64,000 nucleotides of DNA from an uncultured virus (IMG/VR IMGVR_UViG_3300036793_000098). Its lineage: Duplodnaviria; Heunggongvirae; Uroviricota; Caudoviricetes. A program made the translations under genes and the position numbers. The stretch lies in IMG/VR virus record IMGVR_UViG_3300036793_000098; one strand, given 5' to 3'. Within the stretch, counting starts at the first letter, position 1. The number at the start of each line of letters is the position of its first letter. The notes beneath the pieces were generated by a model. The model was given only the letters and a program-made list of their open reading frames with translations. It had not been told where the DNA came from and did no database searches. Shown here piece after piece: positions 3,123-46,113 of the stretch.

Positions 3123-3149
3123 TCCGACCCATCAACCCGAGGAGCAACC

Positions 3150-3935
3150 ATGTTCGCAAAAGCCACCTGGACCGGCACCATCAGCTTCGGCCTGGTCTCA
3201 GTGCCGGTCAAGCTGTACGGCGCCACCGAAGAGCACGGCCTCGAGATGCACGAAGCGCACCCGGCCGACGGGGGTCGGGTGGGCTATCGGCGCTACTGCA
3301 AGGACTGTGGCAAGGATCTGGACTTCAGCGACATCGGCCGCTCACACGTGGACACCGACGGGCACGCGCACGTGTTCACCAAGTCCGAGCTCGACGGCCT
3401 GACCGACGCGAAGGATCACGCGATCCACCTGGACTCGTTCTGCGATCCGGACCAGATCGACCCGCTATACCTGGGCAAGACCTACTACGTGCGCCCGGAC
3501 TTCCTGATCAAGAAGCGGGGCGACGCACCGCGCGCGAACAAGCCGTTCGCCCTGTTCGCCGAGGCGCTCACCATCTCGGGCAAGGCCGCGATCGGGACTG
3601 TGGTCATGCGGTCGCGCGAGTCGCTCGTGGCCATCACCATGCGCGAGGACGTGATGATCCTGCGCGTGGTCATGTGGGCCGACGAGCTGCGCGCACCGAC
3701 CTTCCAGGAGCCGGACGCGCCGGCGGTCGAGATCTCGCACGAGGAGACCACGATGGCACTCGAGCTGATCGGCGCACTGTCCACCAAGTTCGACATCAAC
3801 TCACACGTGGACCGCCGCGAGCTCGCCCTGTCCGACCTGATCGCGTCCCGCCGCCAGCCCGTGCAGACGAACGAGAGCAACGTCGTGGACCTGTTGGCCC
3901 GGTTGCCGAAACCGGCCGCCGCGCATGCCGTGTGA
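3150..3935 (+). CDS. ku: Ku-like DNA end-binding protein
   Basis: WTGTISFGLVSVPVKLY, IDPLYLGKTYY and DELR motifs of prokaryotic Ku; RBS GAGGAG. Confidence 0.92.
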   Translation: MFAKATWTGTISFGLVSVPVKLYGATEEHGLEMHEAHPADGGRVGYRRYCKDCGKDLDFSDIGRSHVDTDGHAHVFTKSELDGLTDAKDHAIHLDSFCDPDQIDPLYLGKTYYVRPDFLIKKRGDAPRANKPFALFAEALTISGKAAIGTVVMRSRESLVAITMREDVMILRVVMWADELRAPTFQEPDAPAVEISHEETTMALELIGALSTKFDINSHVDRRELALSDLIASRRQPVQTNESNVVDLLARLPKPAAAHAV

Positions 3936-19882: not shown

Positions 19883-20413
19883 GCCGGCACCGCCTCAGTG
19901 GTCAGGTGCGCCCAGCAGAACCGGCAGGTGCGTCCGAGCAGGTAGCCCGACGACAGCGGCAGTACCTCGTCGCTCGACTCGATGTGCAGGCCGCACGCGA
20001 CCACGTAGCAGGACTCCTGCGCCGACAGCTGGATGACGTAGCGGACCCGGTGGATCGACTGCCAGCCCGCGTTCGTGTCCTTGATGGCGAGTTCGCTGCC
20101 CGGGTGCACCGCCACCACGTGGTGAGCCACCTCCGGGGCGGTCACTTGGTCACCTCGGCGTCCTCGGCCGTGTGCTGCTGCCGCAACAGGTCCAGCAACT
20201 CCGGCGTGGCCAGACACTCCTGAGCCAGCTCCCATCCCACCTGCGGATGAGTCGCGTACCGGTCCCAGGTGCGGTCCAGGAACGTGACCAGACGGTCACG
20301 TCCACGCTTACGGGCCGGCGTGGGCGCGTTGTCCGCTACGCCGAGCAGTCGCTCGGAGGGGGTCTTCTGCGTGGTAGCCGTGGGCTTGGGTCGCGGCCGG
20401 GGCGAGGGGCGGT

Positions 20414-20605
20414 TCATGCGTGCACCTGGGCCCGGTGCTTGCCGCCGGCGGTTACCGCCGAACGAGCAACGAGAGTGGTGTGGCCGGTGCCTATGGAGCC
20501 GCCGGTGCGCGAGCGGGTTGCCCTGTGGTGACCGTGTGACACCATCTGGGCGATTTGGGTCACCAACCGTAGAACTTTCGGTGACTGGGCCGTTACGGTG
20601 GTCAT
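20414..20605 (-). CDS. Small hypothetical protein
   Basis: ATG with upstream GGAAGG/GGAG; ATGA overlap with the next ORF. Confidence 0.45.
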   Translation of the reverse strand: MTTVTAQSPKVLRLVTQIAQMVSHGHHRATRSRTGGSIGTGHTTLVARSAVTAGGKHRAQVHA

Positions 20606-20708
20606 TAGCGGGCTCCGTACCTTCCGAGGTTGTGTGTTCGTTACCGAGGATCGAAGGCGCCGTTTCTGCTGCCAGGCGGACGGCGCCTTCTTCGTGCGTT
20701 TCCTTGAC

Positions 20709-21896
20709 TTACGTAGGGCCTCCGTCGGCGCCAAGCGGCTGGGTATCGGCAGCCTCATGGCCGACGGAGGAGTTAGAGACCCCAGCGACGGGGCGACCAT
20801 GGGTACCGCCAACGGCCTGGTCGCTGGGGAGTTCATGTAGGCGCTTTGCCTCGCGCCAGAGGTCACGCAGAACTTCCTTACACACGGCCCGCAGCGCCCG
20901 ACCGTGCTGATGGCCCAGTGACAGCCCGCTACCGGGCTGAGCCGGCTTGCCAGACGGGCCGCACCGCTTGCACTCAGTGGCGTGCACCGCGCCGTCGTAC
21001 TTCTCCCGCGCCGCGTCGTACACCTCGCGGTACGGGCCGCCGGCCTTGACGATGGACTTCGCTACCAGGTGTGCGCGCTTCTTGGCATCGTCGGACCAGT
21101 TCGACTTGACGCCACGTTGCCGAACCTGCCGGGCGGCGTCCCCGTATCCGCAGTAGGACCAGAGCTCGGACACCAGGCGTGGACGTTCGTGCAGGTCGTT
21201 CCAGTACGGGTCACCGATCGTGGCCAGTAGCCGGGCCGCTTGCTTCTCTCCTACCCCGTGCGCCTGCTTCACCCAGGGTCCGAGCGGGTGCTTGCGCAGC
21301 TGACGCTTCAGGTTGAGTTCGGCCTGGTGCTCGGCGTCTGCGAGTGCCTTGACCAGCGCGGCCAGTCGGGCAACGTCCGGGTGGTCCTCCGTCAGGCCGA
21401 ACCCGCGCTCTTCGCCGTCCGAGTCTTCCTCGGTTCGGGTCAGCTGACGCAGCCGGTTCTCGTTGGCGATCCGGACTCGCTCCAGGTCGTCGAGCACGTC
21501 GGCGGCCAGGGCGAGGAAGGGATCCGCCAGCACCGGCGCCGTGTCACTGGTTGCCGGTGGCAGATTGGCCGGTGCTGGCGGAGTTGGGGCGTCACCGACG
21601 CGCCCTGAATGGGCATCGATCCTTTGCTGGTCGATGACGCTGCTTGAGATCCCCGACGGCGCGAATCCGTTGAGCGCTGCGCGTCCTATGGCCGCCGGGG
21701 AAGTAAGAGCCTCGTCGACGTTCATTGCATGGGTGCAGGTACCCCTTTGGTCGACGAGGAGATGGGGGCCAGTAGCAACGGCGGAATCATGGTTGTCGCC
21801 TACTACCTGGTTGCTACTGGCTGCTTGGGCCGCACCGACGGCCTTCAGATGGGTGTCGCCGCTGAGGTGGTCGGTGCGGGGTTCAGTGGTGGTCAC
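20709..21896 (-). CDS. tasA: IS110-Tnp/Nop-domain protein lacking RuvC (TasA-like RNA-binding effector); N- and C-terminal extensions run through guide-like units
   Basis: Coiled coil LDDLERVRIANENRL, GVGEKQAARLLATIGDP, LWSYCGY, RQRGVKSNW, YREVYD, HQHGRALRAVCKEVLRDLW; no DEDD domain; alternative start GTG at 21533. Confidence 0.72.
   Translation of the reverse strand: MTTTEPRTDHLSGDTHLKAVGAAQAASSNQVVGDNHDSAVATGPHLLVDQRGTCTHAMNVDEALTSPAAIGRAALNGFAPSGISSSVIDQQRIDAHSGRVGDAPTPPAPANLPPATSDTAPVLADPFLALAADVLDDLERVRIANENRLRQLTRTEEDSDGEERGFGLTEDHPDVARLAALVKALADAEHQAELNLKRQLRKHPLGPWVKQAHGVGEKQAARLLATIGDPYWNDLHERPRLVSELWSYCGYGDAARQVRQRGVKSNWSDDAKKRAHLVAKSIVKAGGPYREVYDAAREKYDGAVHATECKRCGPSGKPAQPGSGLSLGHQHGRALRAVCKEVLRDLWREAKRLHELPSDQAVGGTHGRPVAGVSNSSVGHEAADTQPLGADGGPT
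20719..20829 (-). ncRNA. TIGR-like stem-loop guide units (2), downstream of the Nop domain
   Basis: ccccagcga-CCA-ggccgttgg-CGGTACCCA-tggtcgccc-CG-tcgctgggg (20780-20829); cctccgtcgg-CCA-tgaggctgc-CGATACCCA-gccgcttgg-CG-ccgacggagg (20719-20770). Confidence 0.8.
21589..21879 (-). ncRNA. TIGR-like stem-loop guide array (5 units, ~60-nt period)
   Basis: Units at 21830-21879, 21768-21821, 21710-21759, 21651-21700 and 21589-21640; each is a 9-11-bp stem around CCA-N9-(CGAYACCCA-like)-N9-CG. Confidence 0.85.
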
Positions 21897-22411
21897 GCGG
21901 CATCACCCAGCGCGTCGCTCAGGATCGAGTCCGGCAGTTCGCGAACCATGGCTACGCCGTTCCTGCGGAGCAGGTCAGCGACGGTGTGCAGCCGGAAGGC
22001 CGCCTGAGCATTCTGCTGCGCGTGGGCTTCGCGTACGGACGCAGCAGCAGTCAAGTCGTCGAACGTGCAGTCTCCGAAGAACTTGTAGCTCTTCGGCCCG
22101 ACGCATATTCGTTCGCGGAGCTGGGCGGCCCACGCGGACCTAATCTCCTGGACCTTGCGGGAGCGGTTAGGCACGGAACCCCCGGCGGCGGTTCTCATAT
22201 GGGTGTCGTCAGGGCCGTGACCGCCGGGGGAGATCAGTGGTGTGCGCGTCATCATCGCCCGCACCAACGTCGGCAACGCCTGCTCGAGCGCTGCACGTAC
22301 GTGGTTCTTCCCGATTCGACTGGCGACTTCTTTGGCCAACAGCTCGGGGTCGGCGATGGTGGAGTTGTCGGCCACCTCGTGGACGAGGGCTCGCAGGTTG
22401 AAGTCGCTCAT
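21893..22411 (-). CDS. Hypothetical protein coupled to the TasA-like gene; contains one guide-like unit
   Basis: GTGA overlap with the downstream gene; KFFGDCTFDDL motif. Confidence 0.7.
   Translation of the reverse strand: MSDFNLRALVHEVADNSTIADPELLAKEVASRIGKNHVRAALEQALPTLVRAMMTRTPLISPGGHGPDDTHMRTAAGGSVPNRSRKVQEIRSAWAAQLRERICVGPKSYKFFGDCTFDDLTAAASVREAHAQQNAQAAFRLHTVADLLRRNGVAMVRELPDSILSDALGDAA
22179..22230 (-). ncRNA. Single TIGR-like stem-loop guide unit inside the upstream CDS
   Basis: cccccggcgg-TCA-cggccctga-CGACACCCA-tatgagaac-CG-ccgccggggg. Confidence 0.75.
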
Positions 22412-22617
22412 CACGCGGTCTTCCGTTCTCCGCGCACCCAGGCGGTCACGGCGTCGCGGTGGATGCGCCAGAGTCGGCCCTTGCCGCGCTGGTGACCTTC
22501 GAGCTCGCCGGTTTGCAGCGCGGCGTAGACCTCGGTGCGGCCGTATTTGGTGAGTTTCTGGACCTGGGTTGGGGTGAGCCAGACCTGTTCCAGCTCGGCG
22601 TGGTCACTGTCAGCCAT
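22411..22617 (-). CDS. Excisionase/Cro-like HTH_17 protein
   Basis: WLTPTQV..GRTEVYAALQTGELEG..LWRIHRDAVTAW; divergent from the repressor. Confidence 0.8.
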   Translation of the reverse strand: MADSDHAELEQVWLTPTQVQKLTKYGRTEVYAALQTGELEGHQRGKGRLWRIHRDAVTAWVRGERKTA

Positions 22618-22667
22618 CAAGCCCTGCCTATTTCGGACCGATTCGGGGTTCCTGAGATCCCCTTGGA

Positions 22668-22820
22668 CATGCCGAACAGTACCGAACTGTGCTGAAGAGT
22701 GTCAAGCTGTTTTGTCAAACTGTGCTGAGCGGACACTAGCACTTCGCGACAGTGATCTTGACATCGTTCGACTTAGTTCACTTGCGGTCGACATCTGTGC
22801 AGGTCAGGCTGTCCCGCATG
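22668..22820. promoter_or_regulatory. Immunity region: divergent promoters and operator repeats
   Basis: Minus strand TTGACA(22705-22700)-N18-TACTGT; AACTGTGCTGA at 22685 and 22718; plus strand TTGCGG-N17-CAGGCT-N7-ATG(22818). Confidence 0.65.
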
Positions 22821-23276
22821 GGCATGCACGGGGACCTGCTGAAAGCCGCGCGGGAACGTGCTGGGCTCACTCAGGAGGAGTTGGCCGACCTGGTCGGCGC
22901 GCACCGAGCTTCGGTCGGGAACTGGGAAAAGGGCACTCCACCACGCAACCGCCTCGGCAAGATCCGAGACGTACTCGGCCTAGATGAGCACCTGAAACCG
23001 GTCGGCTCGGCCGATGCGCAAGACTTCCAAAGTATGGACAACCGTGAATTAGTGGCACGAATGAACGTCCTGGTCTCCCAGATGAACCAGCTGGCCGCCG
23101 AGATCACCCGCCGACTGCAGCTCCAAGAGTTCGACATCGACGCGCATTCGGGCACTTCGCGGCGCAACTACACAGGGCAACCGATCAACGGAACCTATGA
23201 AATGTCTGTGGACGACGTCGAGCTAGACCCTAAAGAGCCTGGTGGGGACGTGTACGGTGACGCGTCGCCAGGATGA
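22818..23276 (+). CDS. XRE-family immunity repressor
   Basis: LKAARERAGLTQEELADLVGAHRASVGNWEKG. Confidence 0.85.
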   Translation: MGMHGDLLKAARERAGLTQEELADLVGAHRASVGNWEKGTPPRNRLGKIRDVLGLDEHLKPVGSADAQDFQSMDNRELVARMNVLVSQMNQLAAEITRRLQLQEFDIDAHSGTSRRNYTGQPINGTYEMSVDDVELDPKEPGGDVYGDASPG

Positions 23277-23393
23277 GTGTCATCAATTCTGATGAACCGT
23301 AGGCTGACTACCCGTTCAGCCTATAGTTGCGCGCTCAAATGGGTGAGAGGTTAACGCCCTGTTCACACCATCTACGGTAGGAGCATCCCCACG

Positions 23394-23720
23394 GTGCCCT
23401 CACACGCGCCCTACAAGTCGACAGCCGCCCAATGGCTCACAGAGGCAGCCATCTACCACACCGGTTACACCGTTCACATCAACGACAACATCACCGCCGA
23501 CGCGTCCGTTGATCGCGAGCGTGGATGCATCGAGATCCGCCCCGGCCTGAGTCTGCCCCGCTTCCACATCGCCCTCGGCCGCTCGGTCCTGTTCGCCGTG
23601 TTCGACCAGTCCATCGTGCCGGAGTTCCATCAGGCCGTCCGGGAGCTACCCTCCGGTGTCCTAGCCTTCCCCCCGCCCCCGCGAAGGCTCGACCAGTACG
23701 GACTACCCCTGAGCAGCTAA
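23394..23720 (+). CDS. Hypothetical protein in the ImmA/IrrE position, no HExxH
   Basis: Between repressor and integrase; RBS AGGAG. Confidence 0.55.
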   Translation: MPSHAPYKSTAAQWLTEAAIYHTGYTVHINDNITADASVDRERGCIEIRPGLSLPRFHIALGRSVLFAVFDQSIVPEFHQAVRELPSGVLAFPPPPRRLDQYGLPLSS

Positions 23721-35337: not shown

Positions 35338-35624
35338 ACGGATATCGCCCTCGATCCAGGGAGCCACGGGGATTGGCTACGACCTGGATCGAGGGCTTTT
35401 ACGTCCCCGCCGCGGACGAGCGAGCCCGGCGGGAACGGCTCAGGGGCGGGTTTGCAGATACTGGTAGCGACACGTCCTCTCGTGCTCCTGGCGCTGCGTA
35501 CGGGCCCGCATCTCACCGCCGGGCAGCCAGCGGGCCACCCAGGTGCAGCCGAAGCGCATGTACGAGCAGATGAGGTAGGAACCTGTTGCCTCGGGGTCGC
35601 GGCTGGTGGTCATGGGCCTGCTTT

Positions 35625-45936: not shown

Positions 45937-46113
45937 GCGTCGCGTCTGGCGACGATGAGAGCGGTAACGAGGGACTGGACGGCCTCCGGCGATAACAGTA
46001 CTGACGGGCCATCGTCGGAGTGGGGCGCGCGAATGGTTACTAGCACGAGTCCATCCGCGCGCCCCACCGACAGTGAACCGTTGCCGCCGTCGCGGGTCGG
46101 CATTGGTCACAGC

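Follow-up and report, generated by a model that had tools for sequence, protein, structure and literature searches.

The locus described here raises the question of whether an array of guide RNAs and the coding sequence of the protein that would use them can be written in the same bases. It lies in a 64,000-nucleotide (nt) stretch of DNA from an uncultured virus of the Caudoviricetes (IMG/VR record IMGVR_UViG_3300036793_000098), the whole of which we refer to as the window. On the minus strand, an open reading frame (ORF) encodes a protein with a Nop-like domain and runs through tandem hairpins on both sides of that domain. A preliminary description of this ORF, made from the sequence alone, had proposed that the hairpins are guides overlapping protein-coding sequence, to be cut out of the effector's own mRNA. 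We compared the locus with its relatives and consider it likely that it is a stem-loop TIGR-TasA system, in which nine hairpin units are interleaved with coding sequence and tasA takes its long form.

Hairpin units within the tasA reading frame

The long tasA ORF (20709..21896, minus strand) encodes 395 amino acids (aa), from a GTG start to a TAA stop at 20711-20709. The GTG overlaps the TGA stop of the preceding gene, here called the companion gene, by 4 nt (CGCGTGACC); both the open frame and the overlap had been reported in the preliminary description, and both hold.

A scan for hairpins with a 30-nt loop gave nine outstanding examples, all on the minus strand. Each unit has a stem of 10-15 base pairs (bp), nearly all of them Watson-Crick, and a 30-nt loop of the form CA-N9-CGAnaCCCA-N9. 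In the window, the motif runs from a stem strand ending in GAC through CA-N9-CGAcACCCAT-N9 to a stem strand beginning with GTC. Eight units lie in the tasA ORF, six before the conserved core and two after it, and the ninth, U0, lies inside the companion gene. Seven had been counted originally, five upstream and two downstream; the downstream pair stands, but the upstream count fell one short, and U0 was also missed.

We assigned phase 0 to a unit when the CA of its loop falls at codon position 1. Upstream of the core, four units are in phase 0: U1 (21879-21830, 10-bp stem, 30-nt loop, peptide DHLSGDTH, z -5.07), U2 (21821-21768, 12-bp stem, NQVVGDNH, z -4.11), U3 (21759-21710, 10-bp stem, DQRGTCTH, z -3.74) and U4 (21640-21589, 11-bp stem, DQQRIDAH, z -3.60). 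Both units after the core are also in phase 0 and precede the first stop: U6 (20829-20780, 10-bp stem, DQAVGGTH, z -3.08) and U7 (20770-20719, 11-bp stem, GHEAADTQ, z -4.96), which ends 8 nt before the TAA. All six peptides were correctly listed in the preliminary description; the translation contains each of them, and they arise when the unit motif is read in frame 0. The frame sharing claimed for six units is therefore real, but of the eight units in the ORF two are in phase 2. These are U3b (21701-21650, 11-bp stem that includes a single G-U pair; at z -1.36 it is the weakest of the units) and U5 (21582-21523, perfect 15-bp stem, -38.7 kcal/mol, z -5.57), and they are also the two with degenerate centres, GCAGCGCTCAAC and GGCAACCAG, respectively. 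The core's first conserved residues, A-P-V-L-A-D, are encoded by the 3' arm of U5, which also holds an alternative GTG at 21533-21531. Loop starts are spaced 60, 60, 59, 61 and 62 nt apart upstream and 60 nt apart between U6 and U7, so that the -1 shift at U3b (59 nt) is made good by the following 61 nt, as had been noted. The units thus lie in an ORF without a stop or net frameshift.

Every unit was predicted to fold into the expected hairpin, at energies from -20.7 to -38.7 kcal/mol, with z scores of -2.8 to -5.6 for eight units and about -1.4 for U3b. Aligned without gaps, the nine units show pairing in 90 of 90 stem cells and changes on both sides in seven of ten pairs, and the stem covariation score was reached by none of 500 shuffles. 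Over the 64 kb, the unit detector found eight units at the tasA locus, one elsewhere on the minus strand and a weak one on the plus strand. By itself, the motif GAYRCCCAK did not reach significance in the window (11 matches where 5.75 are expected, a count reached by two of 100 shuffles), and Rfam returned no family at E <= 1 over 20300-22700. Within the window, no target matched the spacers at <=2 mismatches in either arrangement with gaps of 0-2; the sole matches were a chance match with three mismatches and U6 matching itself.

A hairpin at 35347-35396 (minus strand) was considered as a distant unit and rejected. It has a 10-bp stem and a 30-nt loop starting with CA, but its centre is CCCCG rather than CCCA. 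Its loop ends pair further (CAGG...CCTG), and since convergent genes have their 3' ends on either side of it, it is more probably a terminator than a guide unit. Another hairpin, at 46019-46068 (minus strand), has a 10-bp GC-rich stem, a 30-nt loop and the centre AACCAT; it does not start with CA and was not called by the unit detector.

The core protein resembles Tas proteins

The TasA core (20817..21536, minus strand; about aa 121-360, about 234-240 residues) is predicted to consist of coiled-coil helices and a Nop-like RNA-binding domain. Searched against the PDB with phmmer, the core matched 9mty_A (E 1.6e-13, its residues 145-295) and TasH 21kl_A (E 2.5e-6). Entry 9mty is titled by Foldseek as TIGR-TasR with tigRNA and target DNA, and the alignment starts at its residue 145, past the RuvC part. 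No Pfam domain, nuclease included, scored above the cut-off in the 395-aa product. The PHROGs database places aa 115-361 in phrog_4285 (E 1e-106), a family labelled 'transposase'.

We modelled the protein with AlphaFold2 (AF2) on a 32-sequence alignment. The mean predicted local distance difference test (pLDDT) score exceeds 85 in each ten-residue block of aa 121-360, whereas it drops below 50 over aa 1-96 and to about 50 over aa 361-395, where no secondary structure is predicted except a short helix at 358-364. The residues N-terminal of the coiled coil are all encoded by the array and have pLDDT below 50. Foldseek placed TasR 9mty first for the core model (E 1.2e-8), followed by eight TasH chains from five TasH entries (E to 2e-6); lower ranks held IS621/IS110 recombinases (about 3e-3) and Nop5, a weak match at E 0.6.

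Since the predicted core is Tas-like and lacks a nuclease domain, we take the protein to be TasA and the hairpins to be a stem-loop TIGR array. The units match this type in being tandem, with variable palindromic stems, two 9-nt spacers and box C/D-like flanks. From sequence similarity and the predicted fold, the guide array flanking a Nop-domain effector in the preliminary description is identified as a stem-loop TIGR array with a nuclease-less TasA effector.

Related loci suggest that the array is probably translated

A tblastn search with the core found 91 phage records, comprising 83 from Mycobacterium, five from Gordonia and one each from Rhodococcus, Arthrobacter and Microcystis. We fetched 41 loci (six genomic loci, 31 viral contigs and four annotated phage regions) and removed the duplicates L015, L018, L031 and L038; the remaining 37, together with the window, form a set of 38 non-redundant loci. 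Units were located with a family detector that allows one stem mismatch, and a strict version was also run. The family detector found 200 units on the tas strand versus two on the opposite strand, over 199 kb. Their consensus is GGC, the loop CA-N9-CGAnaCCCA-N9-C and GCC, corresponding to two half-sites CCA-N9-CG set 18 nt apart, and it fits the description of stem-loop tigRNAs given in Faure et al. 2025 (PMC12045711).

Two or more contiguous upstream units are present in 27 loci. In 22 of these, no stop interrupts the tas frame anywhere in the upstream array, compared with eight and four for the other two frames. The tas frame is also the longest open frame upstream in 30 of the 38 loci. Codon phase separates units inside ORFs from those outside. 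Upstream units inside the ORF occupy phases 0, 1 and 2 in 66, 4 and 41 cases, compared with 15, 18 and 10 for upstream units outside any tas ORF (chi-square p 3e-9 for inside versus outside, strict detector). All 31 units inserted in the core itself, at the wedge-loop site where translation is certain, are in phase 0 (31, 0 and 0). Phase 1 is nearly absent inside ORFs (4/111), yet stop codons are no commoner in that phase. The spacing between units is a multiple of 3 for 47 of 83 pairs inside ORFs (binomial p 2e-5) versus seven of 22 outside. A frame preserved across homologues, as the preliminary description had expected, was thus found in part: just five of the 27 arrays carry an in-frame stop, but units inside ORFs switch between phases 0 and 2.

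Start codons and peptide composition point the same way. We considered the 28 loci that have units inside the stop-to-stop ORF. Ten of them have at least one whole unit with no ATG, GTG or TTG between it and the conserved core (24 of 105 units), and in 18 this holds for at least part of a unit. Hydrophobic codons make up 13.6% of loop codons in upstream phase-0 units and 13.9% in internal units, versus 20.6% in the corresponding phase of units outside ORFs (Fisher p 0.0017 and 0.016); no difference of this kind is seen for phase-2 units. Together with the coupled start described below, the open frame and codon phase support an array that overlaps coding sequence, as first described, in a way that selection has kept across the family.

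Two of the sampled loci have further features of their own. In a Pseudonocardiaceae contig (L001:715-1056), the upstream array alternates two stem types with a double period of 141 nt. One of these stem types (TCCGTCAGCACCGGC) is nearly identical to the stem of U5, so some stems are conserved across distant loci while their spacers differ. In a Nocardia suismassiliense contig (L005:3382-4572), tasA is interrupted in frame by an intein of 1.2 kb that includes a LAGLIDADG homing endonuclease (Pfam Intein_splicing 9.5e-12, Hint and LAGLIDADG_3), inserted in the core just before two internal guide units.

The start codon of tasA

Two GTG codons could begin the protein, one at 21896, before the upstream array, and one at 21533, within U5. 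The expected products are about 41 kDa for the first and about 30 kDa for the second (M122-T395, C-terminal tail included). A homologue of the companion gene precedes tas in 23 loci, and in 18 of these an ATG or GTG overlaps the companion stop by 4 nt. In 16 of the 23 loci, this ATGA or GTGA overlap start is in frame with tas and no stop intervenes before the core, over distances of 6 to 726 nt with 0-9 units in between. The N-terminus MTTTEP is common to the window and to L026, a locus that has no unit before its core. Existing annotations differ: Gordonia phage BENtherdunthat gp59 is annotated in its long form (425 aa) by GenBank curators, with three upstream and two internal units inside the annotated coding sequence, and the annotation of Morrissey gp42 takes in one unit, while the short form is given for Bethlehem gp71 and Omega gp21. 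The alternative start named in the preliminary description, GTG 21533, is indeed present, but the homologous column is a start codon in just four of 38 loci and mostly encodes I, L, F, W or another non-start residue. Taken together, these comparisons make it likely that translation starts at GTG 21896 and that the long ORF is the real coding sequence.

Alternative explanations

Several observations weigh against a translated array. The open frame is unremarkable in the window alone, where 19% of 125-codon stretches lack a stop and an antisense ORF on the plus strand (21463..22143) extends over the array too, and its significance comes solely from the family comparison. The loci in that comparison are related rather than independent and the internal units all sit at one insertion site, perhaps as the result of one event, so that fewer independent events took place than the counts suggest. 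GC content at codon positions 1, 2 and 3 is 0.765/0.457/0.817 in the core, 0.696/0.568/0.672 in the upstream array and 0.80/0.625/0.70 in the downstream array, which thus lack the core's third-position (GC3) signature; if the array segments are translated, RNA constraints shape them and not codon usage. Five of the 27 arrays (L009, L010, L013, L016 and L032) have in-frame stops and the Bethlehem array is open but has no usable upstream start, so guide function does not need translation. Downstream units lie inside the ORF in just five of 15 cases, two of them in the window. Finally, GTG 21533 stands exactly at the first conserved core residue. Translation from this codon would make the six upstream units an untranslated leader array, open by chance or by descent from relatives in which they are translated; starts at this codon or close to it are found in Bethlehem gp71, Omega gp21 and several metagenomic loci, and the frequency of stop-free stretches and the missing GC3 signature fit as well. 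However, GTG 21533 is buried in the perfect 15-bp stem of U5 and has no Shine-Dalgarno-like sequence before it, the homologous codon is a non-start in most loci, and the overlap with the companion stop is the conserved family start and is followed by the N-terminus common to L026. A start at 21533 would also leave U6 and U7 untouched; no stop precedes them, and they are translated whenever the core is. We regard this short form as distinctly improbable.

Another alternative is that frame compatibility is a by-product of RNA geometry, with 18-nt half-sites, 30-nt loops and periods of about 60 nt in stop-poor, GC-rich sequence, translation not being selected for and the protein tails being noise. 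Half-sites and loops have lengths divisible by 3, for reasons that lie in RNA as well as protein, and the spacers have no GC3 bias. Geometry does not account for several findings: phase 1 is avoided solely inside ORFs (4/111 versus 18/43 outside), the tas frame is open and not the other two (22, 8 and 4 of 27), 16 of the 18 overlapping starts are in the tas frame, and hydrophobic codons are depleted solely in units of the translated phase; we therefore give this account very little credence. A weightier alternative accepts dual-coding DNA and assigns the two functions to separate RNAs, with tigRNAs made from their own promoters or from untranslated transcripts and maturation neither consuming the tasA mRNA nor feeding back on the level of TasA. 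According to Xu et al. (bioRxiv, September 2026, 10.64898/2026.09.09.750476), genomic sequence cannot tell co-transcription from embedded promoters, and arrays outside ORFs work in relatives such as PlTasA, as described in Faure et al. 2025 (PMC12045711). On the other side, 4-nt overlaps join three genes and there is a hairpin beyond the tasA stop, both pointing to a single operon transcript, and a promoter and terminator scan found no sigma-70-like promoter in 20000-23400, a scan that is weak for actinobacteria. Separate RNAs are a possibility to be taken seriously, if not the one we favor.

A guide unit in the companion gene

The companion gene (21893..22414, minus strand) encodes a 173-aa protein of phrog_4604, a family without an assigned function. 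Its homologue lies directly upstream of tasA in 23 of the 38 loci, its stop usually overlapping the tas start, and the locus points to a conserved companion protein, which may belong with TasA. In the AF2 model, a linker whose pLDDT falls below 50 at aa 60-76 connects two confidently predicted domains, and the model had no fold match in the PDB at E <= 0.001.

Unit U0 (22230-22179, minus strand, 11-bp stem) is in phase 0 of the companion frame, with the peptide GHGPDDTH, and encodes aa 62-79 within the disordered linker, which is the indel-rich part of the companion family alignment. In L011, the companion is 49% identical and carries a phase-0 unit in the matching position, with spacers that differ. 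No unit is present in any of the other 21 companion homologues.

Operon and phage context

The companion gene overlaps the preceding ORF (22411..22620) by 4 nt, as it does tasA. A perfect 11-bp hairpin with a 16-nt loop (20653..20690, minus strand), lacking a U-run, lies 19 nt past the tasA stop and is possibly the end of the transcription unit. The same scan that was searched for promoters placed one plus-strand terminator-like site inside the tasA gene, which is uninformative for actinobacteria.

The minus-strand gene order is a xis-like helix-turn-helix gene, the companion gene and tasA, and the system probably lies in the early operon of a temperate actinophage. The window encodes a major head protein, tape measure, endolysin, terminase, integrase, cI-like repressor, DNA polymerase, primase and exonuclease, and is from a temperate actinophage or prophage. 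It also encodes a clamp-loader-like ATPase at 992-2299 and a Ku-like DNA end-binding protein at 3123-3932 on the plus strand (phrog_4873, E 9e-53). The stretch is present in two soil-metagenome DNA runs and in no RNA run, and is identical to the window wherever long contigs cover it, and so offers no variation.

A model for shared guide and coding sequence

We propose that translational coupling to the companion stop would set the start of tasA at GTG 21896, and that ribosomes would read the hairpins as disordered N- and C-terminal tails. Each 30-nt loop holds two half-sites CCA-N9-CG and thus two 9-nt spacers. By analogy with PlTasA and BlTasA, discussed below, we suggest that each unit is probably matured into a single-hairpin tigRNA and taken up by a TasA dimer, which would bind DNA through 9+9 nt and leave it uncut. 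Processing and translation may compete on one transcript, as the preliminary description proposed, which would give feedback. Excision of U6 and U7 would leave the tasA message without a stop codon, an outcome peculiar to the present locus.

A broader scheme, which we put forward tentatively and think rather unlikely, is that the TIGR arrays of this clade grow in translated sequence between the coupled start and the Nop core. New or duplicated units would be admitted when they suit both the frame and the peptide, being in phase 0 or 2, free of stops and poor in hydrophobic residues, and units could also colonise the disordered linkers of other genes, as in the companion gene here. Where U6 and U7 are excised, ribosome rescue on the non-stop mRNA would lower TasA and so balance guide and protein.

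Comparison with known systems

Like a CRISPR array, the locus has tandem guide units beside an effector gene, and CRISPR units are processed into short guide RNAs. CRISPR arrays, however, are non-coding and have identical repeats with one spacer per unit, whereas the units here have variable stems and two 9-nt spacers and the array lies within an ORF. In box C/D small nucleolar RNAs (snoRNAs), a Nop-domain protein binds a short two-guide RNA cut from a longer transcript that also serves a protein-coding gene. These snoRNAs are intronic and untranslated and guide RNA modification; the units in the window would, by analogy with other Tas systems, guide DNA binding, and they lie in exonic sequence predicted to be translated.

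The closest comparisons are with other TasA loci. PlTasA, from a Peromyscus leucopus gut contig, is described as a TasA that lacks a nuclease and has its hairpin units in tandem (Faure et al. 2025, PMC12045711; Guan et al., 10.64898/2026.08.11.744272). Each unit has two spacers and box C/D-like flanks, is processed at the linkers and is bound by a TasA dimer, and small-RNA sequencing of pull-downs recovered the processed units (Faure 2025, PMC12045711). As described there, its 13 units form three subarrays separated by an intergenic region of about 450 nt, whereas the units in the window are inside ORFs.

Units within a tas gene are the subject of the preprint by Xu et al. (10.64898/2026.09.09.750476), which describes TasA as a transcriptional repressor and reports tigRNAs in the coding sequence of BlTasA from Bifidobacterium longum, by small-RNA sequencing of pull-downs. 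As stated there, stem-loop units occur at the 5' end, at the 3' end or inside tas with its reading frame left intact, in disordered regions, and TIGRFinder, with 2,559 stem-loop arrays, reports units inside the tas coding sequence. The expectation in the preliminary description that array finders confined to non-coding sequence would miss such arrays is therefore already overtaken. The preprint also raises as an idea a link between tigRNA maturation and Tas translation, with separate promoters considered equally possible. Like the BlTasA and TIGRFinder loci, the window has stem-loop units in frame within tas, in disordered regions. Unlike the intragenic loci described there, it has no internal (wedge-loop) unit, and its units are six N-terminal, two C-terminal and one in another gene.

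The principle of in-frame intragenic tigRNAs is thus already present in that preprint, and the present locus is confirmatory. What we add is quantitative: a codon-phase rule, a coupled start and a unit inside a second gene. We found no mention of units in neighbouring genes, a fixed codon phase or a coupled start in the main text of Xu et al.; the figures, supplementary table and TIGRSafari of that work may cover them. Because guides and coding sequence share bases, array finders and gene callers should allow the two to overlap. At about 2 kb the actinophage locus is easily cloned and is suited to testing whether tigRNA maturation and TasA translation are coupled. It indicates that guide-RNA genes and protein-coding sequence can occupy the same bases under both constraints at once.

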